DNA from: Sphingomonadales bacterium
GTDB lineage: Bacteria; Pseudomonadota; Alphaproteobacteria; Sphingomonadales; Sphingomonadaceae
Length of the DNA: 64,000 bases
Assembly (NCBI GenBank): GCA_017309275.1
Contig: JAFKLT010000043.1
Location: forward strand, 24,572-88,571
Direction: 5' to 3'
Shown: piece by piece, positions 44,837 to 56,977 of the stretch
Layout of the letters: each line of letters begins with the position of its first letter
Position numbering within the stretch: the first letter of the stretch is position 1
The notes under the pieces: model-generated
What the model was told of the DNA's origin: nothing
The model's input: only the letters and a program-made list of their open reading frames with translations
Database searches by the model: none
Made by a program: the position numbers and the translations under genes

Positions 44837-45289
44837 CTAGAGTTCAATCGATATCTTCACATTCTGCGACTTGATGCCCGCAAGCGCCGCGATCGCCAGG
44901 CGCGCGGCATGGATCATGATGCTCAGACGCTGCGGGTTCGCAAGCCCATCGGGAATCTCGTTATTCTGCCACACCTCGGGCCCGATCATCTCCTGGTCGA
45001 AGCGATAGGCGGCGGTGTCGCTTCGGCCGACCAGGTCGATCTCCGCGATCCCCAGCGCGTTCGCGAGCATCTGTAGATTGCTTTGGCGCGGCTGTGTCCG
45101 TCCCGATTCCCACGCCCAGATCGTCGGCCGACTGAGCCCGGTTCGTTCGGCGAGTTCGGACCGGCTCATGCCGCATTCCTCGCGAAGGCGGCGGAGGCGC
45201 GCCGGCAACGGCTCGCCGATCTCGATACCGATCTGACTTGCGGAAGCGCTCACGCCGAACCGTCCCAACCGCGACCTGCGGCAGCGCAT
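44837..45289 (-). CDS. XRE-family HTH transcriptional regulator
   Basis: LRRLREECGMSRSELAERTGLSRPTIWAWESGRTQP HTH; C-terminal IAALAGIKSQNVKISIEL. The true start may be GTG at 45253. Confidence 0.88.
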   Translation of the reverse strand: MRCRRSRLGRFGVSASASQIGIEIGEPLPARLRRLREECGMSRSELAERTGLSRPTIWAWESGRTQPRQSNLQMLANALGIAEIDLVGRSDTAAYRFDQEMIGPEVWQNNEIPDGLANPQRLSIMIHAARLAIAALAGIKSQNVKISIEL

Positions 45290-45336
45290 GCCTTTTCAAC
45301 GACATTGACACCCATGGACGCCCCCTAAAGCAACGC

Positions 45337-45396
45337 GCCATCCCCGATCTGCTATGCTGGAAATTGAAATTTCCCGTCATTCCCTGTTGGGGACAT
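45337..45396 (-). promoter_or_regulatory. Conserved ~60-bp element, copy A
   Basis: Minus strand ATGTCCCCAACAGGGAATGACGGGAAATTTCAATTTCCAGCATAGCAGATCGGGGATGGC; about 46/61 identical to 56286-56346 by manual alignment. Confidence 0.75.
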
Positions 45397-45478
45397 ATGG
45401 AAAACGCTGTGTCAAAATCGGCCGATCTTCTTTGAACAGAGGCGACCCGCAGACCCTCCGGCCCCCGAACATCAATGT

Positions 45479-47377
45479 TTAGAATGCCGTACCGAAGGTG
45501 ATCGAGAACGCCTTCGAACGATCGCCTGCCTGACGCACGACCGGCTGCGCAATGTTGAAGCGAAGCTTGCCCGGCGCGAGGTTGAACGACAGGCCGAAGC
45601 CGACCGCAACGCGCGGCTTTGCCGAATTGCCGATCAGCACTTCACCCGGCCCCAGTTCGGATCGCCGCGTGCCGAAAACCGACCCGGCATCGACGAATAT
45701 GCTCGGTGTTACCCCAAACTTATCCAGAGCGCCGTCCAGGCGCATCGACAGCTCGATCCGCCCGACATAGTAAGCGCTGCCGCCGATCGCGGTTGCCTGC
45801 CCCGGACCGGCGTTGACGGGGATCACCTTTGGTCCCAGGCCGCGAAGGTCGAAGCCGCGCATGCTGTTGCCGCCGATATAGAAACGGTCGAACAGCGGGA
45901 TATCGCGGCCGCCGAAGCCCTTCATATAGCCGCCCTCCAGCCCCAGCGAGACATCGAGGTTGCCGCTGAGGCGGCGCTGAAAAGTGCCCCCCGCGCGGAT
46001 CCGGACATAACGCGTCGTGCCCCCCGGACCGGCGATATCCTGCGTGACGCGGAGCTGGAAACCGCGCGTCGGATCAGTCGCGCTGTCGCGCCGGTCGAGG
46101 CTGAGCGCGACGCTGAAGACCGAACTGGTCGACGGGCCAAGCGCGTCGCAGAAGGGCGTGCCGTGAATGCCGACGTCGCAGAGAGCGTTCTTCCGGCGGA
46201 TGCGAAAGTCCTCGTCGGAAAAGCGGTAGTTGGCGGCGACGCGAAACCCGCGGTCGAGCTGCCGCCCGACATAGAAGTTGATGCCGCGCGCCGACTGGAC
46301 GAACAGCGAGGCGCTGTCGGCCCTGTCGAAACCGACCGCGGTCGAGCGCGAATAAAAGAAGGTGGGCGCCACGGCGAACTTGCTGCCCAGCAGATTGCCG
46401 TCGACCGCGCCGAGCTCGACGAGCGTCTGGACCTTTGAATAGCGCGCCGACACGCTGATGTCGCGGCCCGGCGCGCCGATGTTCGTGCGCGACAGCTTGA
46501 TCGACGCGATCGGTCCCTCGATCGACGAATAACCGCCCGACAGCGCCAGCCCGCCGCGCGACAGCGTCTGGAGCGACAGGAGATCGCCCTCGCGCGCCGC
46601 GCCGTCGGTCGCGGTGCTGTCGGCGGCAACGTCCATGTCGCGGCTCGGAACACCGCTGGCCGGATCGTCGTCGTCACGATCGGGGGCTGTCGACATCGGC
46701 TCGCCGGCGGCGTGCGGAGCCTGGCCGTCGAGCGCCGCAGCGGGGGCAAAGGCGTGCCGCGATCCCATGTCGGCGAGCGCGATCGCCGCCTGCCGCTTCG
46801 GGCCCGGATCGCCGAGCCAGGGCGCCGCGGCGGCTTCTCCGCCAAAGATTTGCGCCGTCGAGGGGGGTGCGTGGGCCGCAGGGTCCGACAGCGGGGCCGC
46901 ATCGAGGAACGGCGACGTATCGGCGGCAGGCACCAGCGTGTCGGCCAACAACGGCAGCGCCGATGCCGAAGGTGCATAGTCCGGCGCCCCGCCCGGCAAG
47001 GCCGGAGCATCGGCCAACACCGGCGCCAGCATCCCCACATAAGGAGGCTCCGTCCCCGCCATTTCGTCGAGCACCAAAGGTGGCCCCACCGCGTCCGCTT
47101 TGTCGATCAGGGGCCGCGTCGACGACGTCGGGGGGAACGCATGCTTTCGGGTACGCCGCGCGGCAACAGCCGGCAGCACGACGTCAAGCGGCACGTCGAA
47201 CGCACGATTGGAGGGGTAGGAAGCGATCGGCCCATAGCGCGTGTACGGGGGAAATATCGCCGGGCCGGGTACACCGGCCGATCCGGTACCGCCGATCCCG
47301 ATGGTGACCGCCACCCCCAGCGCAGTCCCCTGCACCGCCTGGTGGATGCCCTGGCAAAGTAATCCGTATCCGGACAA
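45479..47377 (-). CDS. BamA-like Omp85 beta-barrel lacking POTRA domains, with a long Pro/Ala/Asp-rich N-terminal region
   Basis: TTG start with a strong RBS; barrel motifs GLALSGGYSS, DPTRG, SMRGFDLRGLGP, IFVDAGSVFG, terminal FSITFGTAF align with bamA in this window. Confidence 0.85.
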   Translation of the reverse strand: MSGYGLLCQGIHQAVQGTALGVAVTIGIGGTGSAGVPGPAIFPPYTRYGPIASYPSNRAFDVPLDVVLPAVAARRTRKHAFPPTSSTRPLIDKADAVGPPLVLDEMAGTEPPYVGMLAPVLADAPALPGGAPDYAPSASALPLLADTLVPAADTSPFLDAAPLSDPAAHAPPSTAQIFGGEAAAAPWLGDPGPKRQAAIALADMGSRHAFAPAAALDGQAPHAAGEPMSTAPDRDDDDPASGVPSRDMDVAADSTATDGAAREGDLLSLQTLSRGGLALSGGYSSIEGPIASIKLSRTNIGAPGRDISVSARYSKVQTLVELGAVDGNLLGSKFAVAPTFFYSRSTAVGFDRADSASLFVQSARGINFYVGRQLDRGFRVAANYRFSDEDFRIRRKNALCDVGIHGTPFCDALGPSTSSVFSVALSLDRRDSATDPTRGFQLRVTQDIAGPGGTTRYVRIRAGGTFQRRLSGNLDVSLGLEGGYMKGFGGRDIPLFDRFYIGGNSMRGFDLRGLGPKVIPVNAGPGQATAIGGSAYYVGRIELSMRLDGALDKFGVTPSIFVDAGSVFGTRRSELGPGEVLIGNSAKPRVAVGFGLSFNLAPGKLRFNIAQPVVRQAGDRSKAFSITFGTAF

Positions 47378-47442
47378 CTTCCTTCCCCCTCTTCCGGAGC
47401 GCTAGGCCCCGGCCCACACCTCAGCTCGAAGCCGCCTTGGGG

Positions 47443-48801
47443 TCATGATTCCCGGAAGGATCGGTTGAAACTGTCGATCATCGGCTGGAACAGATATTGG
47501 ATCAGCGAATTCGACCCGAGGTTGATGTAAACCTCGGCCGGCATGCCCGACATCAACCGCACGCCGGGATAACGCTTCAATTGCTCGGGAGCGATTTGGA
47601 CGATCACCTTGTAGTATATCTGCTGGCTGTCCTTGTCGAAGATCGCATCGGGGCTGACCTCCTTCACCGTTCCGAGAAGGTTCGGGATCACGCGCGCCTT
47701 ATAGGGCGTCAGCTTGATTTCGGCCTTCAGGCCCGAATGGACCATGTCGATGTCGTTGGGACGCAGCCGCGCCGCGACCACGATCCCTTCGGACGAGGGC
47801 ACGATGTCCAATATCGGTTGCCCGGCCCCGACGACCCCGCCCGGGGTAATCAGCCGCAGATTGGCGACGCGCCCCTCGATCGGCGCCACGATCTGCTGGC
47901 GGGTGCGGACGTCGGCGCTGACCTTCAGCTTTTCCCTTGCCTCGGCGATCCGGAGCTGAACCTCGCGCTGCTGCGACGTCGCCTCCAGCGCCACCTGACC
48001 GCGCAGCGACACCATCTGGGCCCGCGTTTCGCCGATGGTGTCGCGAAGGCGATCGAGGTTGTTGGTCAGCTTGCCCTGCTCGCCCTCAACGAGCGCTTGC
48101 TGCCGCTGCAGCGCGAGCAGGCGCGACTTGCGCTCCAATCCCTCGTCCACCAGCATGTTCACGCCCATTTCCTCGTCGTTCAGCAGCTTGGCCTGGTCGG
48201 AAAGCGCGGCGATCTGCGCGTCGGAACTGCGTATATCTGCGTGCGACTGCCCGATCCGTTGCGTGAGGACCGCCGTCTGTTCCGAAAGCCCGCGCTGCCG
48301 CGACAGGAATTCGGCGTTGGACGCCGCGATGATCTCCTTGACCTCGGGGTCGCTCGCGACCGCGAGCAGTTCGGCCGGGTAGCGGATCGTCCGCAGCCCC
48401 AGCCGCTCGGCGGTCAGCCGCGCGTCCTGCGCCAGCAGGCCGTAAAGCGTCGAGCGCAGCGCGGCATCGGACGCGTCGGTCTGGGTGTCGTCGAGCTCGA
48501 CGAGCGGCTGGCCGGCGCGCACGAACTGCCCCTCCTCGACCAGGAAGCGACGAACGATCCCGCCCTCCAGATGCTGCACCGTCCGCCGCCCGCCACCCGC
48601 CGCCTCCAGATAGCCGGGCGCGATCGCGGCGCTGTTGAGCGGCGCGGCCCAGGCCCAGATCCCGAAGGCGATGACGAACAGGCCGATCGAGATCAGCGCC
48701 ATGCGGAGCGACCCGCGGACCCGGGGGCCCGGCGCGTGGCCGGCGAGCGCAGGCAGCGCGAGCGGCGCCGGATCGCGGCTCAGACTAAGCGGAACATTCA
48801 T
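47443..48801 (-). CDS. Type I secretion membrane fusion protein (HlyD/PrtE family)
   Basis: TM helix, WAWAAPLNSAAIAPG, TVQHLEGGIV, IVAPIEGRV, GVVGAGQPILDIVP, LMSGMPAEV; ATG overlaps the ABC gene stop. Confidence 0.95.
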   Translation of the reverse strand: MNVPLSLSRDPAPLALPALAGHAPGPRVRGSLRMALISIGLFVIAFGIWAWAAPLNSAAIAPGYLEAAGGGRRTVQHLEGGIVRRFLVEEGQFVRAGQPLVELDDTQTDASDAALRSTLYGLLAQDARLTAERLGLRTIRYPAELLAVASDPEVKEIIAASNAEFLSRQRGLSEQTAVLTQRIGQSHADIRSSDAQIAALSDQAKLLNDEEMGVNMLVDEGLERKSRLLALQRQQALVEGEQGKLTNNLDRLRDTIGETRAQMVSLRGQVALEATSQQREVQLRIAEAREKLKVSADVRTRQQIVAPIEGRVANLRLITPGGVVGAGQPILDIVPSSEGIVVAARLRPNDIDMVHSGLKAEIKLTPYKARVIPNLLGTVKEVSPDAIFDKDSQQIYYKVIVQIAPEQLKRYPGVRLMSGMPAEVYINLGSNSLIQYLFQPMIDSFNRSFRES

Positions 48802-50594
48802 GCCCCCGCTCCCTTCTGGTTGAACATGACCGGGTTGGTCTTTGCAGGGTCGCCGTGCGGTGCACCCTCGCCAGGCGCGATTACCCGCCGACTGCCGCTC
48901 ATCTCGGCAATCACGTTTCGGGCATCGCCGAATTTGGCCGCCTGTCCATCCACCATCAGCAGGATCTTGTCGGCCAGTTCGAGCAGGTTCGACCGATGCG
49001 ACACGATGATCGTCGTCATGTTCAGCGCCTTGAGCTTCTTGATCGTCGCCAACAGCGCCGCGTCGCCACGCGCGTCGAGGCTTGCATTGGGTTCGTCGAG
49101 CACGACCAGCGGCGGCAGTCCGTACAGCGCGCGCGCCAGCCCGACCCTCTGTCGCTGTCCCCCGGACAGTTGATGCCCGCCGTCGGTCAGAACGCAATCA
49201 TAGCCGCCGTCGAGGCGCAGGATCATGTCGTGGCAATCGGCCAGCTTGGCCGCCGCGATGATGTCCGCATCCCTTGCGTCGGGCCGAAATCGCCCGATGT
49301 TTTCGCGGATGGATCCCGGCAAAAGCTCGACGTCCTGCGGCAGATAGCCGACGTTGGGGCCGAAATCGCTGCGCATCCAATCGAAGGTATCGGCGCCGTC
49401 GAGCCGGACATGACCCGAACTCGGCTTCAGCACGCCGACCAGCAGGCGCGACAGGGTCGTCTTTCCCGACGCCGACGGCCCGACGATCGCGAGCATCTTG
49501 CCCGCGTCGATCGCGAAGGTGACATTCTTCAGGATCGCGCCCTTCACCCCCGGCGCAAAAAAGGTCAGCCCCTGGATCGCCATGGCGCCCGACGGCTTCG
49601 GCAGCGACATCTGCGACGGGCGCGCGACCGGCAGGTCGCAGAAGCGCGACAGGCGGCGCAGGCTTTCGCGCGCAAGCACGAACTGTTTCCAATAGCTCAT
49701 CGCCGCTTCGATCGGTGCGAGCAGCCGCGCGATGAGGATCGATCCGGCGATCATCGCGCCGCCGGTCAATTGCTGATCGAGAATGAGCAGCGCGCCGACG
49801 CCCAGCAATATGACCTGCACCAGGTTGCGGACGAACTTCATCCAGGCAAGCACCCGGCTCGACTGGAACTGCGTGCGATCCACGGACTCGGTCTCGGCAT
49901 AATAGCGTTCGGCCCAATGCCCGACCGTATCCTTGGCCATGCCCATCGCATCGATGACTTCGCTGTTGCGGACGAGCGACTCCGCATATTGCATGTTGCT
50001 GGCCGCCAGCTTCTGCGTCTCGCTGATCGCGCTGCGCGTGATCCGCTCATTGTACCAGGTGAGGCCGAACAGCACGACGGCGCCGACGAACGAGATCAGG
50101 CCGAAAATGGGATGCAAAAGGAAGACGACCACCAGGTAGAGCGGCACCCACAGCATGTCGACGACGCTGAAAACGGTGGGCGTCGATATGAAATTCTTGA
50201 CCTGCGCCAGCTCGCGCAGGGCTTCCAGTCGCGTTCCCGGTGTGATCAGCCTTTGCTCGAGCGAACGGATGAGCAGCGTCGGAGCGAGCCGCTGCGCCAT
50301 CCATGTGCCGACGCGGTTCGCCGCCTGTTGCCGCACACCGTCGAGGATCGCGCCAAGTCCGATGGCCAGCGAGATCGCGACCATCAGAAAGAACAGCGTA
50401 TCCTTGCTCTGGCTGGTCAGAACGCGGTCGAAAATCTGCATCATGTATAGCGACATGGCGAGAGCGGCCATGTTGGTGATCATCGAGAAGAGAATGAGCT
50501 GCGCGGCTATGCGGCGCTGCGGCCACAATATTTCCTTGAGCGGATTGGGTCCCTTTGCCGCTGCGCGCGGTTCGACCAGGGCGTTTGCCGCCAT
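48798..50594 (-). CDS. Type I secretion ABC transporter (PrtD/AprD/RsaD type, no C39-like domain)
   Basis: LYMMQIFDRVLTSQS, DMLWVPLY, GPSASGKTT (Walker A), GYLPQDVEL, LSGGQRQRVGLARA, LVVLDEPNASLD. Confidence 0.95.
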   Translation of the reverse strand: MAANALVEPRAAAKGPNPLKEILWPQRRIAAQLILFSMITNMAALAMSLYMMQIFDRVLTSQSKDTLFFLMVAISLAIGLGAILDGVRQQAANRVGTWMAQRLAPTLLIRSLEQRLITPGTRLEALRELAQVKNFISTPTVFSVVDMLWVPLYLVVVFLLHPIFGLISFVGAVVLFGLTWYNERITRSAISETQKLAASNMQYAESLVRNSEVIDAMGMAKDTVGHWAERYYAETESVDRTQFQSSRVLAWMKFVRNLVQVILLGVGALLILDQQLTGGAMIAGSILIARLLAPIEAAMSYWKQFVLARESLRRLSRFCDLPVARPSQMSLPKPSGAMAIQGLTFFAPGVKGAILKNVTFAIDAGKMLAIVGPSASGKTTLSRLLVGVLKPSSGHVRLDGADTFDWMRSDFGPNVGYLPQDVELLPGSIRENIGRFRPDARDADIIAAAKLADCHDMILRLDGGYDCVLTDGGHQLSGGQRQRVGLARALYGLPPLVVLDEPNASLDARGDAALLATIKKLKALNMTTIIVSHRSNLLELADKILLMVDGQAAKFGDARNVIAEMSGSRRVIAPGEGAPHGDPAKTNPVMFNQKGAGA

Positions 50595-50595
50595 C

Positions 50596-51807
50596 CTATT
50601 GCTCCCAGATAGGGGAGCTGTCGGCGGCGTGGAGCGGAAGGATCAGGCCGGAAATCAGGCCTGCAAGTTCCATCTGGCGATGGACGCCCAGCTTCGCACG
50701 GACACGCTTCAGATAGGTGCGCGCCGTTTCCTCCGACAGGCCGCAGCCCTCCGCCGCGTTGCACAGGCTGCTCGATCGCAGGAAGTGGCCGAGGAAGCGT
50801 TGCTCGGATGGCAAAAGCCCGAGGGCTTCGAGCAGCGACCGGGGCGCGTCAACCTTGCCCGCCCCCATGATGATCATCATGGCGCAGCGCGCCGTTCCGC
50901 CTTCCGACCGCGATTTGGCCGAAATCACATAGACCAGGCGCCAGTCGCCATTGCGGCAGTCGAGCCGGAATACATCCTCCACCGGCACGTCCGCCGTCGC
51001 GGCGCGGCGGATACTCTCGCGAAGCTGTTTCGCCTGTTGGGGGTCCACCGCGACGATCGCGCCGTCGGCCGCTCGGATCAGCCATTTGCGCTGTTCGACC
51101 ATCGCTGCCGCCGCGCTGTTTAGGAACAGCGGTTGGGCGTCTGCCGACAGCAACGCCATCGACAGCGAAACCCGATCGAACATGCCCTCCAGCATGGCGG
51201 AGCGGCGGGACTGGCGCGCGAGCTGCGCAACCCCGGCGGCGGAATCGGCGAGCAGAGGCGCTATCAACTGCAGGGAACAGCTGTCCTGCTCGCTGAACCG
51301 TCCGCATCCGCTCTTCCGAAAGAACAGCGCCTGAATATTCGCGCCATTCCGCCTCATCCGAATGGCGATGCCGCAATCATAGACGCGCGGCATGCTGCCG
51401 GCATCAACGCTGCCGGGCTCTTCGAGGCTGAAATCTACGGCTGCATCGGCCGCGGAAATCTGGAATTGGTGGACCGGCGCGTCCCCGATGCGCAGCCACA
51501 GATGGCCCATCATCTTCAGCAGCGCCTCGATCGCCTTGGGATTGCCCCGGGCCTCGTCCAGTCCGATCAGGAAGGAATGGCGCCGCGGCACGGCCCCCCG
51601 AAACGTGACCGTCAGAATCGCCGAAACGATGTCGAACTGTGCAAGATAGTCGTACCAGACCTTTCGGGTATTCGACGCCACGTCGACGACGCGCTCATGA
51701 CCGAGGCACACCTCATCCTGACCGAACTCACCTGCATCGCCATAGGTATCGCAACCATCGCCATTCGCGTCAGCGTAAAGCGTCGAAAGCTCCATATCCG
51801 AAGGCAT
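50596..51807 (-). CDS. Sensor-domain (GAF/PAS-like) transcriptional regulator with a LuxR-type C-terminal HTH
   Basis: PLFLNSAAAAM (PAS-like); GLLPSEQRFL...GLSEETARTYLKRVRAKLGVHRQMEL (LuxR HTH); stop lies 1 bp from the ABC start. Confidence 0.85.
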   Translation of the reverse strand: MPSDMELSTLYADANGDGCDTYGDAGEFGQDEVCLGHERVVDVASNTRKVWYDYLAQFDIVSAILTVTFRGAVPRRHSFLIGLDEARGNPKAIEALLKMMGHLWLRIGDAPVHQFQISAADAAVDFSLEEPGSVDAGSMPRVYDCGIAIRMRRNGANIQALFFRKSGCGRFSEQDSCSLQLIAPLLADSAAGVAQLARQSRRSAMLEGMFDRVSLSMALLSADAQPLFLNSAAAAMVEQRKWLIRAADGAIVAVDPQQAKQLRESIRRAATADVPVEDVFRLDCRNGDWRLVYVISAKSRSEGGTARCAMMIIMGAGKVDAPRSLLEALGLLPSEQRFLGHFLRSSSLCNAAEGCGLSEETARTYLKRVRAKLGVHRQMELAGLISGLILPLHAADSSPIWEQ

Positions 51808-52171
51808 TATGGTCCCCCCATGAGTCATAGGCCGGACGCGAGCGCCAACGCCCGCGACAGGAAATGCATGCGCGACCATGATGTGGACGCGACGCTCCGG
51901 GTACGGACAGAACGCGCGTCTTTGGCTGGGATACCTCGAACTTTGTTTCCCTAGCCGAAGCTGTCGATTGACGTGGATCTCTCGATAGCGCCGCCTGCTG
52001 CCAGAGCTGCAGGAGACAGCCGACGTCTATTTCGATTCGACCGAGAGAGTCTATTATCCCCTCGGACATATCCGTTTGGGTAGTTTCCCGCCGCGCCGCC
52101 GCGCACTAGTCTCCATGCATAAGAAAAAAGGGGCGTCGCGCTCGAATCCAGCGAGATTCAGGAGAGGCGAA

Positions 52172-53743
52172 GTGCGGAATTTCTCGACATTCGGAGCGGT
52201 CGTGCTGAGCGCGTCCTGCACCGCGCTGACGATCGCGATCGGCGCGACGCCGCTGGCCGCGCAGGACGCCCCAGTGGGCAATATCCCGTCGGGCACGATG
52301 GCCGGGCTGGCGCGCCACGTCGTCGAATTCAATCCGGATGTCGTGGCGCAGCGCCAGCAGGTCCGCATCGCAAAGGCGCGGCTCGAGTCTGCCGAGGCAG
52401 GCTATCTGCCCACGATCCAGGCAAGCGGGCTCGTCCAAAGGCGCGAGATCGACGTCAAGAAGGGCGGCACCGGCGACTCCGAATATACCGCGGGACAGGC
52501 ATCGATCGAGGCGCGGCTGCGCTTCTATGACGGCAATCGCACCTATAACGCCGTCAAGATCGCCAAGGCCGAACTGCAGGCGGCGGAGGCAGGCCTGCAG
52601 GGCACCGCCTCGGACATCCTGCTCGAACTGTTGACCAGCGCGGCCGACATCCATCTCAACCGGAAGATATTGGAATATTCGCAGGCGCAGAGCGACGCGA
52701 TCGGCGAGCAGCTTCGTGCGACCGAACGCCGGCTGGAATTCGGCGAGGCGACCCGGACCGATCAGGAACTGGCACGCGCGCGGCTCGCGACGTCGGAGGC
52801 CGGCGTCCTTGCCGCGACCGAACAGCTCAACGTCACCAGCTATCGCTTTCGATCGGTCAGCGGCCTGTCGGGCACGGCGACACCGCCCCTGCCTTCGCTC
52901 GCGGCGATACCCGGCTCGCTTGGCGAAGCGCAGCGCATCGCGTCCGAAAATGCACCGCGGTTGCGCGCCGCGCGCCTGAACGCGCAGGCGGGAAAGTCCG
53001 GGGTCAATTTCGCATCGGGGGCGCTGCTGCCGCAGCTCGACGCGGTGAGCGGCTATGAATATCTGACCGGCGGCGTCGCCAATCTGTTCACCGGCAAGCT
53101 GCCCAAGGATCGTTCGTCGCTCTATTATGGCGTCGAACTGAACGTCCCCATCTTTCAGCCGCGCGACCATGCCGAGGTTCGCCGCGCGCGCGCCGTCCGC
53201 GACCAACGGCTGGCGCAGGCGAATTCCGCCGAGCGGACGGTGGCGGAGGAAGTGGGCAGCTATTGGACGCAGTGGCAGTCGGCGAAGAGCACCATCGCCG
53301 CCGCCGAGACGGCCGTCGCCTCGATCGAGAAGGCGGCCGAAGGCATAAAGAAGGAGGCGGTGGGCGGAAACCGGACGCTGACCGACGTCCTCAACGCGCA
53401 GAACGAGCTGCTCTCGGCCCGGGTGACGCTGGAGCGGGCGCGCCGGGCGGAGTTCGTGGCGCGCGCCGGCCTGCTCGCCGCGATCGGACAGCTCGACACC
53501 GATGCGATCGTCGAGGGGCGCTGCTGCGCCGGCGACCCGATCACGCGCCCCGACTCGTCGCGGCTCGGCAAGCCCGTCATCGCGGCCGCCCCCGACGCGG
53601 CGCCGCGACCGGAGGCCGCGACCGAGCGGCCGCAACGATCGGCGCTCGGCAAGGATGTCAGGCTGGCCCGCATCGACAAGGTGCCGCCCCCGGTGGATGC
53701 CGCGCGCCCCGGCGCCTCGACACTCGGGCGCAGGCCCGACTAG
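52172..53743 (+). CDS. TolC-family outer-membrane channel
   Basis: GTG start with AGGAG RBS, signal peptide, AGYLPTI, RLEFGEATRTD, GNRTLTDVLNAQNEL. Confidence 0.93.
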   Translation: MRNFSTFGAVVLSASCTALTIAIGATPLAAQDAPVGNIPSGTMAGLARHVVEFNPDVVAQRQQVRIAKARLESAEAGYLPTIQASGLVQRREIDVKKGGTGDSEYTAGQASIEARLRFYDGNRTYNAVKIAKAELQAAEAGLQGTASDILLELLTSAADIHLNRKILEYSQAQSDAIGEQLRATERRLEFGEATRTDQELARARLATSEAGVLAATEQLNVTSYRFRSVSGLSGTATPPLPSLAAIPGSLGEAQRIASENAPRLRAARLNAQAGKSGVNFASGALLPQLDAVSGYEYLTGGVANLFTGKLPKDRSSLYYGVELNVPIFQPRDHAEVRRARAVRDQRLAQANSAERTVAEEVGSYWTQWQSAKSTIAAAETAVASIEKAAEGIKKEAVGGNRTLTDVLNAQNELLSARVTLERARRAEFVARAGLLAAIGQLDTDAIVEGRCCAGDPITRPDSSRLGKPVIAAAPDAAPRPEAATERPQRSALGKDVRLARIDKVPPPVDAARPGASTLGRRPD

Positions 53744-53881
53744 CGGCACCCCGCGACCGGAGCGGACCGCCGGCGGCGCTTCGAACGGGGCGCCCCGTTG
53801 CCGCGCGTGCGCGGGCCTGTCCGGGCGCCATGATCCGGCCCGACCTGACCCAAAATGAACCACCTCAGAAAATTGTCGGCC

Positions 53882-53899
53882 ATGTCCCCATGCAGGAAT
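53882..53899 (+). promoter_or_regulatory. Core motif TGTCCCCA-N4-GGAAT, copy C
   Basis: ATGTCCCCATGCAGGAAT, about 125 bp upstream of the RTX gene ATG. Confidence 0.6.
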
Positions 53900-54023
53900 A
53901 TTCGTCCCCGGGCCCCCGCCATATCCAATGCTCATGGCCTTGTAATCTCAAGGCCATCCGGGTGTGTTTTGGCTGGTCAGGCGAAAGCGCATCCATTCGA
54001 CCAGAAACGAAGAGGATAGCGAA

Positions 54024-56198
54024 ATGCCAACTGTTAATCCTTCAAGTGCGCCTAACGCACCCAAGGCGACGACCGCGAGGGGCCAGGTACTCGGCACGAA
54101 CGCAGTCGACTTTATCGACCTCAATGCGATCACCACGACCGCCAACCTGCCGTACAATGCGCGCGGCAACGGCGGGAACGACACCGTTTATGGCAATAAT
54201 TTCGACAATGATCTGTACGGCGATGCCGGCGACGACAATGTCATCGGCCGTTCGGGGAACGACCGGATCGATGGCGGGCTCGGCAACGACACGCTGATCG
54301 GCGATCAGGCCTCGTTCGTCGTCGTCGGACCTGGAAATGTCGTCTATTCGGGCATCGACAATGGCGGCGCCGACGGCAACGACACGCTGCTCGGCGGTGC
54401 CGGTAACGATACTGCGTGGGGCGGAGGCGGAAACGACTTCATCCGCGGCGACGCCGGTAACGACGTGCTCAACGGCCAATCGGGCGACGACCGCATCGAA
54501 GGCAATGCCGGCAACGACACCATCGACGGCGGGACCGGCAACGACAATCTGTTCGGCGGGACCGAAACCGACGTCGTGACCGGCGGCGACGGCGATGACT
54601 ATATCGACGGCGGCACCAACTCGAACGGCGTCGACAGCCTGTCGGGCGGCAACGGCAATGACGTGATCTTCGGCGATGGCGGCCCCGGCCGTAACGCCGA
54701 CACCGATTACGCCTATAACCAGAGCGGCTATAACCCGGGGCTCGGCCATGCCGACAGCATTTCGGGCGGCAACGGCGACGATCAGATCTTTGGCCAAGGC
54801 GGCAACGACTCGATCACCGGCGATGACGGCGACGACCTTCTGTGGGGTGATGACGGCAACGACACCATCTCCGGCGGGACCGGCTTCGATGCGATCGATG
54901 GCGGCGAAGGCGACGACAACCTGGCCGGCAACGACGGCGATGACGAGCTGAACGGCGATGCCGGCAACGACGTCATCCGCGGCGGTGCGGGCCTCGACTT
55001 CGTCCAGGGCGGCGCCGACAATGACGACATCGGCGGCGGCACCGGCGACGACACGTTGAACGGCAACGACGGCGACGATCTGGTCAACGGCGACGCAGGC
55101 GACGACCTGATCGCCGGACAACTGGGCGACGACGTGCTGAATGGCGGCGACGGTAACGACGTCATCACCGGCAACGGCGAGCAATCGCCCTATGACCCGT
55201 CCGACCCCGACTTCACCGACGATGACATCATCTCCGGCGGCAACGGCGACGACACGCTGAACGGCAACGACAGCGACGACATCGTGAACGGCGACGCAGG
55301 CAATGACTATGTCAGCGGCGACGAAGGCGACGACAGCCTGTCGGGCGGCACCGGCGACGACTATGTCACCGGCGGCGCCGGAAACGACGTCGCGGCCGGA
55401 AATGACGGCGATGACTCGGTCTATGGCGATGCCGGAGCCGACAATCTGTCGGGTGGCAACGGCGACGACTTCGTCTCGGGCGGCGTCGGCAACGACGTGG
55501 CGTCGGGCGATGACGGCGACGATGTCGTGACCGGCGGCCTCGGTGCCGACCTCATCTTCGGTGGCGACGGCAACGACGTCCTCGATGGTGACAACTTCGA
55601 CGATGCGGTCACCGGCGGCAACGACACGATGTACGGCGGCAACGGCTTCGACTTCATGGAAGGCGGTGGCGGTAACGACTTCATGGACGGCGGCGCGGAC
55701 GACGACACGATGTACGGCGACCGCGGCAACGACAACATGTTTGGCGGAACCGGCGACGACTATATCGAAGGCGAGTCGGGCAACGACAGCATCACCGGCG
55801 GTGAAGGCAACGACCGGATGTCGGGCGGAAGCGGAAAGGACCTGTTCAAGTTCGATTCGACCGATACGTCGCCGGGATTCGGTGACGACACGATCGAATC
55901 GCCGCTCGGCGGTCTCGACTTCAACCTCGCCAACCGCGACACGCTGGTCTTCGACGTCGATGCGGGCTTCGACCCTACATCCGACATCGTCGTGCTGACG
56001 GCCGACTGGGACGGCGACGGCGATGCCCTGGACGTGCTCGTCGCGACCGCGGCTGGCAGCGTCATCCTCGAGGATTTCTGGCAGGGCGCCTCGGCTCCCA
56101 TCCAGGCCCTCGCGGCGGCTGGCGCGTATGACTCGGTTGCGGCGATCAACGCCTACAGCCAAGGCAACGCAAGCTACGACATGATCACGTTCGTCTGA
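54024..56198 (+). CDS. RTX (GGxGxDxUx) calcium-binding repeat protein, T1SS substrate, 724 aa
   Basis: About 50 nonapeptide repeats by manual count, no Sec signal, T1SS-type C-terminal domain; GAGGA RBS. Confidence 0.93.
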   Translation: MPTVNPSSAPNAPKATTARGQVLGTNAVDFIDLNAITTTANLPYNARGNGGNDTVYGNNFDNDLYGDAGDDNVIGRSGNDRIDGGLGNDTLIGDQASFVVVGPGNVVYSGIDNGGADGNDTLLGGAGNDTAWGGGGNDFIRGDAGNDVLNGQSGDDRIEGNAGNDTIDGGTGNDNLFGGTETDVVTGGDGDDYIDGGTNSNGVDSLSGGNGNDVIFGDGGPGRNADTDYAYNQSGYNPGLGHADSISGGNGDDQIFGQGGNDSITGDDGDDLLWGDDGNDTISGGTGFDAIDGGEGDDNLAGNDGDDELNGDAGNDVIRGGAGLDFVQGGADNDDIGGGTGDDTLNGNDGDDLVNGDAGDDLIAGQLGDDVLNGGDGNDVITGNGEQSPYDPSDPDFTDDDIISGGNGDDTLNGNDSDDIVNGDAGNDYVSGDEGDDSLSGGTGDDYVTGGAGNDVAAGNDGDDSVYGDAGADNLSGGNGDDFVSGGVGNDVASGDDGDDVVTGGLGADLIFGGDGNDVLDGDNFDDAVTGGNDTMYGGNGFDFMEGGGGNDFMDGGADDDTMYGDRGNDNMFGGTGDDYIEGESGNDSITGGEGNDRMSGGSGKDLFKFDSTDTSPGFGDDTIESPLGGLDFNLANRDTLVFDVDAGFDPTSDIVVLTADWDGDGDALDVLVATAAGSVILEDFWQGASAPIQALAAAGAYDSVAAINAYSQGNASYDMITFV

Positions 56199-56248
56199 GG
56201 AAAGGCTTCGTACGGGGACCCGATCCCCGGACGAACCTCTGCAGACTG

Positions 56249-56282
56249 GAGGGCAGGCCGCCGCGGCCTGCCCTCTTTTTTT
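56249..56282 (+). terminator. Intrinsic terminator of the RTX gene
   Basis: GAGGGCAGGCC-gccgc-GGCCTGCCCTC followed by T7; a second hairpin lies at about 56208-56237. Confidence 0.9.
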
Positions 56283-56285
56283 GCG

Positions 56286-56346
56286 TTGTCCCCATCTGGG
56301 AATGACGGGGATCGCGAATTTCCGGCATTTCCGGATCAGGGATGGC
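56286..56346 (+). promoter_or_regulatory. Conserved ~60-bp element, copy B
   Basis: TTGTCCCCATCTGGGAATGACGGGGATCGCGAATTTCCGGCATTTCCGGATCAGGGATGGC; homologous to 45337-45396 (minus strand). Confidence 0.75.
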
Positions 56347-56576
56347 AGGGTCAGGACCACTCCCGCAACAAGGTGGAATCACTGCAGAGAAGATGGGTCG
56401 ATCGGCGCGGACAGAACGTCGCCTGCCCCAAGTTCGGCCAGCTGCGGCTGGCCAGCCGGCTCCGCCGCCACGCCCCCCTGGCGGCGGCCGGCATCCCCGT
56501 CGCCAGCGGACCGGCAACAGCGCCCGTCTCGACCGAAGACGCCGACATGGTTGCAGATGATCGGCCATGAAGATCA

Positions 56577-56730
56577 GTATAATAAAATCAATATTCTGAT
56601 AAATATTATATTAACCGAAATTTTTGAAATTGATTTCATAATCATAAAATTAATATTGCGATATATATTTCAGATATTGATAAGTAATATTGTGAATTTT
56701 CATATATTACTCATTTAGTTATTAAATTCA
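56577..56730. other. Extremely AT-rich block upstream of the adhesin
   Basis: 24 G+C in the 150 bp 56581-56730 (16%) in otherwise very GC-rich DNA; eight ATATT pentamers. Confidence 0.95.
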
Positions 56731-56977
56731 TCCGAAAGTATGAGTGCGCATACCGCAAATTGCCATTGCAGAATCATCGACCCAGGTTTGTATTTGACGG
56801 GTCAGTGACCAGGCACGGGCATCGGGCGCCAAAGAGACCCAGCACGATCACAACTGCATTCAGCTTCGCTCCACACCCTGTCGGCGTGGAAGCGCGGCGC
56901 CGTCCATAGCGGCCGGGCCCTTCGCGGGGAACGGCATCGGATGGGCAGATGTCGAGGTGGAGGGGGACCGAAGGGCG

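Follow-up and report, generated by a model that had tools for sequence, protein, structure and literature searches.

In lux-box systems, a regulator with a C-terminal LuxR-type helix-turn-helix (HTH), encoded beside its targets, controls a small local regulon through a dyad box of ~17-20 bp that lies over the -35 region of promoters without a -35 hexamer; the boxes of LuxR, TraR and LasR are centred near -42, and activation is of class II. The box of the response regulator DosR, which has a receiver domain, carries its half-sites in the arrangement GGGACT...AGTCCC. VqmA of Vibrio cholerae and phage VP882 is a receptor in which a PAS domain is joined to a LuxR-type HTH, and it binds an 18-bp stretch with a palindrome of G/C tracts (GG-N6-CC) at very few promoters, which it activates (PMC8284805). 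In Rhizobium leguminosarum, the regulator PraR binds its targets at a TTGCAA motif, is antagonised by the small protein CinS and controls the type-I-secreted Rap adhesins (PMC4149787). Here, we describe a 17-bp box that occurs three times in a type I secretion cluster on a 64,000-nt stretch of DNA from a Sphingomonadales bacterium (contig JAFKLT010000043.1 of assembly GCA_017309275.1, positions 24,572 to 88,571; hereafter the window), which belongs to a 5.1-Mb, 121-contig Sphingopyxis genome. We consider it reasonably likely, judging from sequence comparison, that the box is the site of a 403-residue PAS-PAS-LuxR regulator encoded in the same cluster, and that this protein would most likely be a class-II-type activator of genes for an RTX protein, an M23 peptidase and an XRE-family regulator.

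The first-pass annotation of the window had noted the motif at three sites, each pointing toward the gene downstream, and a pattern search for TGTCCCCA-N4-GGAAT recovers exactly these three matches in the same orientation (boxes A, B and C; Table 1), the earlier coordinates having carried one extra base at the 5' end. The pattern was not matched in any of 100 dinucleotide-preserving shuffles. Nor is the motif common or randomly placed, as the genome-wide scan proposed in that annotation shows: the same three boxes, all in one cluster, are the only sites with zero or one mismatch in the whole genome, and under a weight matrix derived from 53 distinct orthologous sites they score 31-33 bits, against 16.8 bits for the runner-up. 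Short-word blastn of the 120-nt elements against their own genome gave no further copies, so that the box, with its three copies, does not behave as a dispersed repeat or a miniature inverted-repeat transposable element, for which many genomic copies would be expected. Between 44 and 58 kb of the window, an Rfam search at E<=1 gave no match over the boxes or the leaders, the sole nearby match being a weak one on the RTX terminator; a small RNA family is thus not indicated either. In its general form the box reads TGTCCCC-A-N2-3-GGRAT and is an imperfect 7-bp inverted repeat, which is near-perfect in three genomes (TGTCCCC-ATC-GGGGACT in G429, G453 and G520). The quasi-palindrome TCCC...GGGA that had been described for the core is present in boxes A and C (TCCCC-N3-GGGGA in most species) but weak in box B.

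The boxes are conserved in orthologous loci, in ~22 Sphingopyxis species and, as regards boxes B and C, in four other genera. A scan of 114 Sphingopyxis genomes of good quality found the three-box layout in ~22: a single box on one strand and, ~8.8 and 11.3 kb from it, a pair on the opposite strand. In each of these genomes it is almost the sole occurrence of the box. In a motif-independent sample of 16 loci, retrieved by the LuxR-type protein alone, box C is exact in all 16 and box B in 15, the remaining locus, from a Sphingomonadales metagenome-assembled genome (MAG L063; regulator identity 51%), having two mismatches; box A is present at all 13 loci that have the XRE gene and at none of the 3 that do not. 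Pairwise identity in this sample is 0.98-1.00 at the 13 specified box positions, as against 0.39-0.81 over the 40 nt upstream and 0.55-0.73 over the 60 nt downstream. In four other sphingomonad genera and the MAG, TGTCCCCA-N4-GGRAT stands before the RTX gene and again after it, between flanks that cannot be aligned. This pattern bears on the possibility that the copies are functionless remnants of a duplicated promoter segment. Boxes A and C do share ~60 bp of similarity in this genome, an extended similarity between two of the copies having been pointed out before (48 of 62 aligned columns are identical, and the 42 nt outside the core are more alike than in 2000 of 2000 shuffles). However, the similarity of box B to the other copies is confined to the core, and the core persists nearly invariant between flanks that have diverged, even across genera; we therefore find a duplication remnant hardly credible.

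A few genomes carry additional boxes. Two genomes of other genera (G331 and G567) have an extra variant box before the TolC gene (L096:9879 and L097:10288), and the first of these also has a tandem pair 40 nt apart before the RTX gene (L096:11287 and 11327). In G453, a fourth box, TGTCCCCAACCGGGACT at L032:2078-2094, lies ~180 nt upstream of a gene for a PEP-CTERM protein, 21 kb off the cluster, and may mark an extra member of the regulon.

The first-pass annotation had proposed that the box is the operator of the local LuxR-type or XRE protein. A regulator encoded in the locus remains the best candidate, yet the two proteins are not equally favoured by the phyletic pattern. At first sight the XRE protein is an attractive binder that would autoregulate at box A and act on the RTX and downstream genes as well: the XRE operon has box A immediately in front of it, autoregulation by way of palindromic operators is common among Cro/C1-type regulators, and a precedent exists in PraR, which is of the Cro/C1 type, is autoregulated and represses genes for type-I-secreted adhesins (PMC4149787). 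However, in three Sphingopyxis genomes (G419, G431 and G432) the XRE gene and box A are gone while boxes B and C and the LuxR-type gene are kept, and no XRE homologue was found elsewhere in these genomes. Likewise, in three genomes of other genera (G561, G331 and G567) no XRE homologue was found genome-wide at E<=0.001, and the boxes before and after the RTX gene are kept. Because boxes B and C are invariant in these six genomes that lack XRE, and box A comes and goes with the XRE gene, as expected of a promoter, the XRE gene appears to be a target and its product not a required binder; binding by XRE is largely refuted and we regard it as very improbable. An unlinked XRE-like gene in G531 has no box upstream. 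The XRE protein resembles PraR in being a small alphaproteobacterial Cro/C1-type regulator, with an N-terminal HTH at residues ~20-70, that is tied to cargo genes of type I secretion. Whereas PraR itself binds the DNA at its targets, XRE would be a target here, and the boxes persist in genomes that do not have it.

The box instead follows the LuxR-type protein of the cluster, which we favour as its binder, with XRE as one of the predicted targets. When the family was searched at the protein level, four other genera proved to have full-length orthologues of the regulator, at 57%, 47%, 36% and 35% identity, and these, together with the 51% orthologue of the MAG, all have boxes before and after the RTX gene. 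No box was found within ~1.5 kb of weaker paralogues (25-30% identity) in 22 other genomes. Furthermore, the recognition helix of the HTH (EETARTYLKRVRAKLG) is nearly invariant even in orthologues with an overall identity of 35%, in which the sensor part has diverged.

The regulator is a member of an uncharacterised family with a probable HTH of the LuxR superfamily. All 14 orthologues have sub-threshold matches to the Pfam family GerE (best E=5e-4) and the related Sigma70_r4_2 (best E=1.6e-4), and no NCBIfam model matched the protein. An AlphaFold2 model built from a 14-sequence alignment shows two alpha/beta sensor domains followed by four C-terminal helices, at a low confidence (predicted local distance difference test, pLDDT, of 60). 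With this low-confidence model, Foldseek returned proteins with tandem PAS domains as well as the PAS-LuxR receptor VqmA, all at low TM-scores, which speak to architecture only. VqmA is among the top matches and shares the order of PAS and then LuxR-type HTH, but it has one PAS domain in ~220-250 residues, as compared with two sensor domains in 403 residues here; identity between the two is 13-16% and the TM-scores on the low-confidence model are 0.2-0.37. In the PDB search there was no sequence-level match to VqmA, and the likeness of the regulator to this single-PAS type is confined to architecture. The C and G tracts of the box are also in the opposite order to those of the VqmA site. The top PDB profile match of the HTH was the C-terminal, DNA-binding domain of DosR/DevR, of the NarL/LuxR type (PDB 1ZLJ and 1ZLK), with an E-value of just 0.2. 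DosR differs in having a receiver domain. As a lead rather than a test, the DosR half-site (A)GTCCC resembles the half-site (T/A)GTCCCC of our box, in the opposite arrangement. In the literature, we found no description of such a sphingomonad regulator or of a regulator-box pair of this kind.

The position of the boxes suggests how the regulator might act. At 21 Sphingopyxis RTX promoters (class B) the sequence CCATATCC is invariant, and the CATATC within it begins exactly 20 nt past GGAAT; the same spot holds CATATC in G561 and in MAG L063, and CATAGT in G531. Classes A and C have hexamers of the type CAnnnT after a 22-nt gap. If these -10-like hexamers are taken as positions -12 to -7, the boxes are predicted to span approximately -49 to -33 (B) and -51 to -35 (A and C), with centres near -41 and -43. 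A consensus scan found no sigma-70 consensus promoter between 44.8 and 57.1 kb, and the sequence 16-18 nt upstream of the -10-like hexamers is the 3' end of the box itself (GGAATG/AATGTC), which has no likeness to TTGACA. Thus, as in class II promoters, a functional -35 hexamer is missing and a putative activator site covers its position; an A/T tract lies directly upstream of the box. The earlier suggestion that the motif may be combined with a promoter fits well with this predicted arrangement, in which the box overlies the -35 region at a fixed spacing from the -10-like hexamers. The likeness to the lux-box systems extends to the size and dyad form of the box, the HTH regulator encoded beside its targets and the small local regulon. 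It does not extend to the sensor, which has two PAS/GAF-like domains in place of a domain that binds acyl-homoserine lactones, nor to the box sequence, TGTCCCC...GGGGAAT, which is unrelated to lux boxes and has asymmetric ends; binding and transcript start are, for our locus, predictions.

The same LuxR-type protein might also be a repressor, with an operator over the -35 region of promoters that are driven by RNA polymerase alone or by another factor. All of the evidence that links box and regulator would apply equally to such a role, a site over -35 can occlude the polymerase, and PAS-HTH repressors such as PpsR are among the fold matches. Nevertheless, a recognisable -35 hexamer is missing from all three promoters, the 12-kb region yielded no sigma-70 consensus promoter, and the fixed spacing between box and -10 across genera, together with the upstream A/T tract, fits recruitment better than occlusion. 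We therefore think repression unlikely and activation the better reading of the geometry.

Several points weigh against a LuxR-type activator at the box. The invariant bases at the two ends of the box do not mirror each other (TGT at the left end, AAT at the right), and box B has hardly any palindromic character, an unusual arrangement for the site of a symmetric HTH dimer. Against the Pfam GerE (PF00196) cut-off of 23.5 bits, the HTH reaches 18.7 bits (E=0.0014), and the structure model has a pLDDT of 60. The centres at -41 and -43 depend on -10-like hexamers whose conservation in classes A and C is only moderate. Moreover, boxes and regulator always occur together in a single locus, and co-occurrence of this kind is compatible with a factor encoded elsewhere. 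Finally, G495 has box A and the XRE gene at a contig end, and the regulator, the HlyD orthologue and the other boxes are missing from its assembly, a possible counter-example that is nonetheless uninformative.

Another reading is that the box is a promoter element, for example a sigma-32-like -10, and that it is recognised by an alternative sigma factor or by some global factor whose gene lies outside the locus. The E. coli sigma-32 promoter consists of a -35 element CTTGAA and a -10 element CCCCATNT, of which CCCCAT is the core. Boxes A and C contain CCCCAT, which in class A is preceded at 17 nt by a conserved GGGACA, and the invariant bases of the box are directional rather than symmetric. 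However, box B reads CCCCAA in most species and class C has no conserved upstream partner, so that the boxes do not conform to a sigma-32 promoter, and GGAAT and the -10-like hexamer downstream would be left unexplained. In addition, three genomic sites, all in one cluster, are implausible for such a factor, and boxes occur only where the LuxR-type orthologue does. We accordingly consider a sigma or global factor improbable and retain the LuxR-type regulator as the candidate binder.

Other elements lie close to the boxes. In most Sphingopyxis, a second inverted repeat (GGAAA-N4-5-TTTCC) separates box and -10-like hexamer in classes A and C, and it is not found in class B or in other genera; it may be a further operator, possibly for XRE. 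As an XRE operator it is no more than a tentative lead, being not conserved in the XRE-containing subclade of G429, G453 and G520 and kept in genomes without XRE. Open reading frames (ORFs) that start at the ATG of the shared GGATGGC/GGATGAC block were also rejected as genes, their peptides not being conserved between species. At the predicted 5' end of the RTX transcript, a hairpin (CATGGCC...GGCCAT, 53933..53957, plus strand) is conserved, also in G561 and L063; box B itself is 125 nt from the RTX start.

The three boxes had been taken to join the XRE, RTX and adhesin genes into one putative regulon. For the first two genes, which follow conserved boxes, this agrees with our comparison; the adhesin, in contrast, drops out. 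In 25 of 25 related loci, box C and a structured leader of ~300 nt are followed by a gene for an M23-family peptidase (Pfam E=3.7e-22), and the AT-rich block and then the adhesin come after that gene. This genome alone lacks the ~1-kb M23 gene. When aligned to the closest relative, the leader is conserved as far as ~56514 and homology begins again at ~56704, which leaves a deletion scar (~56514-56704) that fuses box C and its leader to the AT-rich block. Because the M23 gene follows box C in all related loci and is deleted here, box C is, by this comparison, an orphaned M23 promoter, and since a strong RTX terminator precedes it, it would be an independent promoter. No terminator-like site was found from box C up to the start of the adhesin gene, and transcription may therefore be able to read through into the adhesin in this strain. 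The remaining leader has conserved hairpins with compensatory changes between species (for example GGCCAGC/GCTGGCC vs GGTCAGC/GCTGACC, and CCGCCGCCA/TGGCGGCGG vs CCGCTGCCA/TGGCAGCGG); it has no match in Rfam and may be a cis-regulatory RNA. Further on, past the AT-rich block and before the adhesin gene starts, ~110 nt (56745-56855) are strongly conserved across species and contain no box; they are probably the adhesin's own promoter or leader.

The remaining genes of the cluster are listed in Table 1. In Sphingopyxis, the genes for the secretion machinery have no box of their own. Most orthologous loci have a leader ORF of 20-42 codons before the XRE gene, joined to it by an ATGA or GTGA overlap and conserved only over its first ~6 residues, which suggests translational coupling rather than a functional peptide; in this it differs from CinS, since the small ORF is not conserved as a peptide. 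The divergent region between the regulator and TolC genes contains, at 52025-52073, a near-invariant direct repeat (GTCTATT-N17-GTCTATT) followed by CATATCC, a -10-like sequence as at the RTX promoter; this block is probably the TolC promoter with a site for a different regulator. About 65 nt upstream of the regulator's start codon, an invariant GCGCGACCATGATGT (51870-51884) may belong to the promoter or leader of the regulator-ABC-HlyD-Omp85 operon.

Table 1. Features of the type I secretion cluster, in window coordinates.
Feature	Coordinates	Strand	Remarks
Box A TGTCCCCAACAGGGAAT	45379..45395	(-)	Upstream of small leader ORF and XRE gene
Box B TGTCCCCATGCAGGAAT	53883..53899	(+)	Upstream of RTX gene
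Box C TGTCCCCATCTGGGAAT	56287..56303	(+)	10 nt past RTX terminator; predicted promoter box of the M23 peptidase gene lost here
-10-like hexamer CATAGC	45351..45356	(-)	Predicted; starts 23 nt after box A (22-nt gap)
-10-like hexamer CATATC	53920..53925	(+)	Predicted; 20 nt after box B
-10-like hexamer CATTTC	56326..56331	(+)	Predicted; starts 23 nt after box C (22-nt gap); class C consensus CAATTT
Second inverted repeat GGGAAAT-N-ATTTCC	45359..45375	(-)	Between box A and its -10-like hexamer
Second inverted repeat, weaker copy	56307..56323	(+)	After box C
XRE (Cro/C1-type HTH) gene	44837..45253	(-)	138 aa from GTG at 45253, start assigned from orthologues; Pfam HTH_3 E=1.5e-15
Leader ORF	45250..45315	(-)	21 codons; TGA stop overlaps XRE GTG start
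Omp85-family gene	45479-47377	(-)	
HlyD-type adaptor and PrtD-type ABC exporter genes	Between Omp85 and regulator genes	(-)	
Candidate cognate regulator gene	50596..51807	(-)	403 aa, conserved start at 51807; two PAS/GAF-like domains and probable C-terminal LuxR-type HTH
TolC-type gene	52076-53743	(+)	
RTX-repeat protein gene	54024..56198	(+)	Pfam HemolysinCabind E=1.5e-91
RTX intrinsic terminator	56248..56276	(+)	Strong
Conserved structured leader	56304..56514	(+)	Precedes M23 gene in relatives
AT-rich block	Between RTX terminator and adhesin		16-27% GC
Giant Ig/cadherin-repeat adhesin gene	Start 56978	(+)	

Taken as a mechanism, these observations would fit a regulator that binds the box over the -35 region of three promoters without a -35 hexamer and recruits transcription there as a class-II-type activator, in the manner of lux-box systems. 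Within the type I secretion cluster, its targets would be cargo and accessory genes, namely those for the RTX protein, the M23 peptidase and, where present, XRE, and the leader-ORF-coupled XRE regulator would probably feed back. In this genome, the deletion of the M23 gene would leave an orphan promoter and its leader facing the adhesin. We speculate further, and regard this wider picture as doubtful, that the PAS-PAS-LuxR protein works with its box as a dedicated switch that senses a signal, of the type of small-molecule receptor represented by VqmA, for an undescribed surface module of sphingomonads that comprises type I secretion, a POTRA-less Omp85, the RTX protein and the M23 peptidase; that this switch controls cargo and accessory genes only and feeds forward through the XRE regulator; and that here, with the M23 gene lost, the third promoter has come to serve the giant adhesin.

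In summary, the comparison yields a precise, testable candidate regulator-box pair for an uncharacterised family of PAS-LuxR regulators, and with it a first map of the regulation of a type I secretion, RTX and adhesin cluster, which is conserved both in Sphingopyxis and in genera close to it. It also assigns the third site to a different gene and reveals that a recent deletion in this strain has orphaned a promoter. With three sites per genome, the box is specific enough to be usable as a marker for the regulon in other genomes, and the system is well suited to asking which signal the PAS domains sense.

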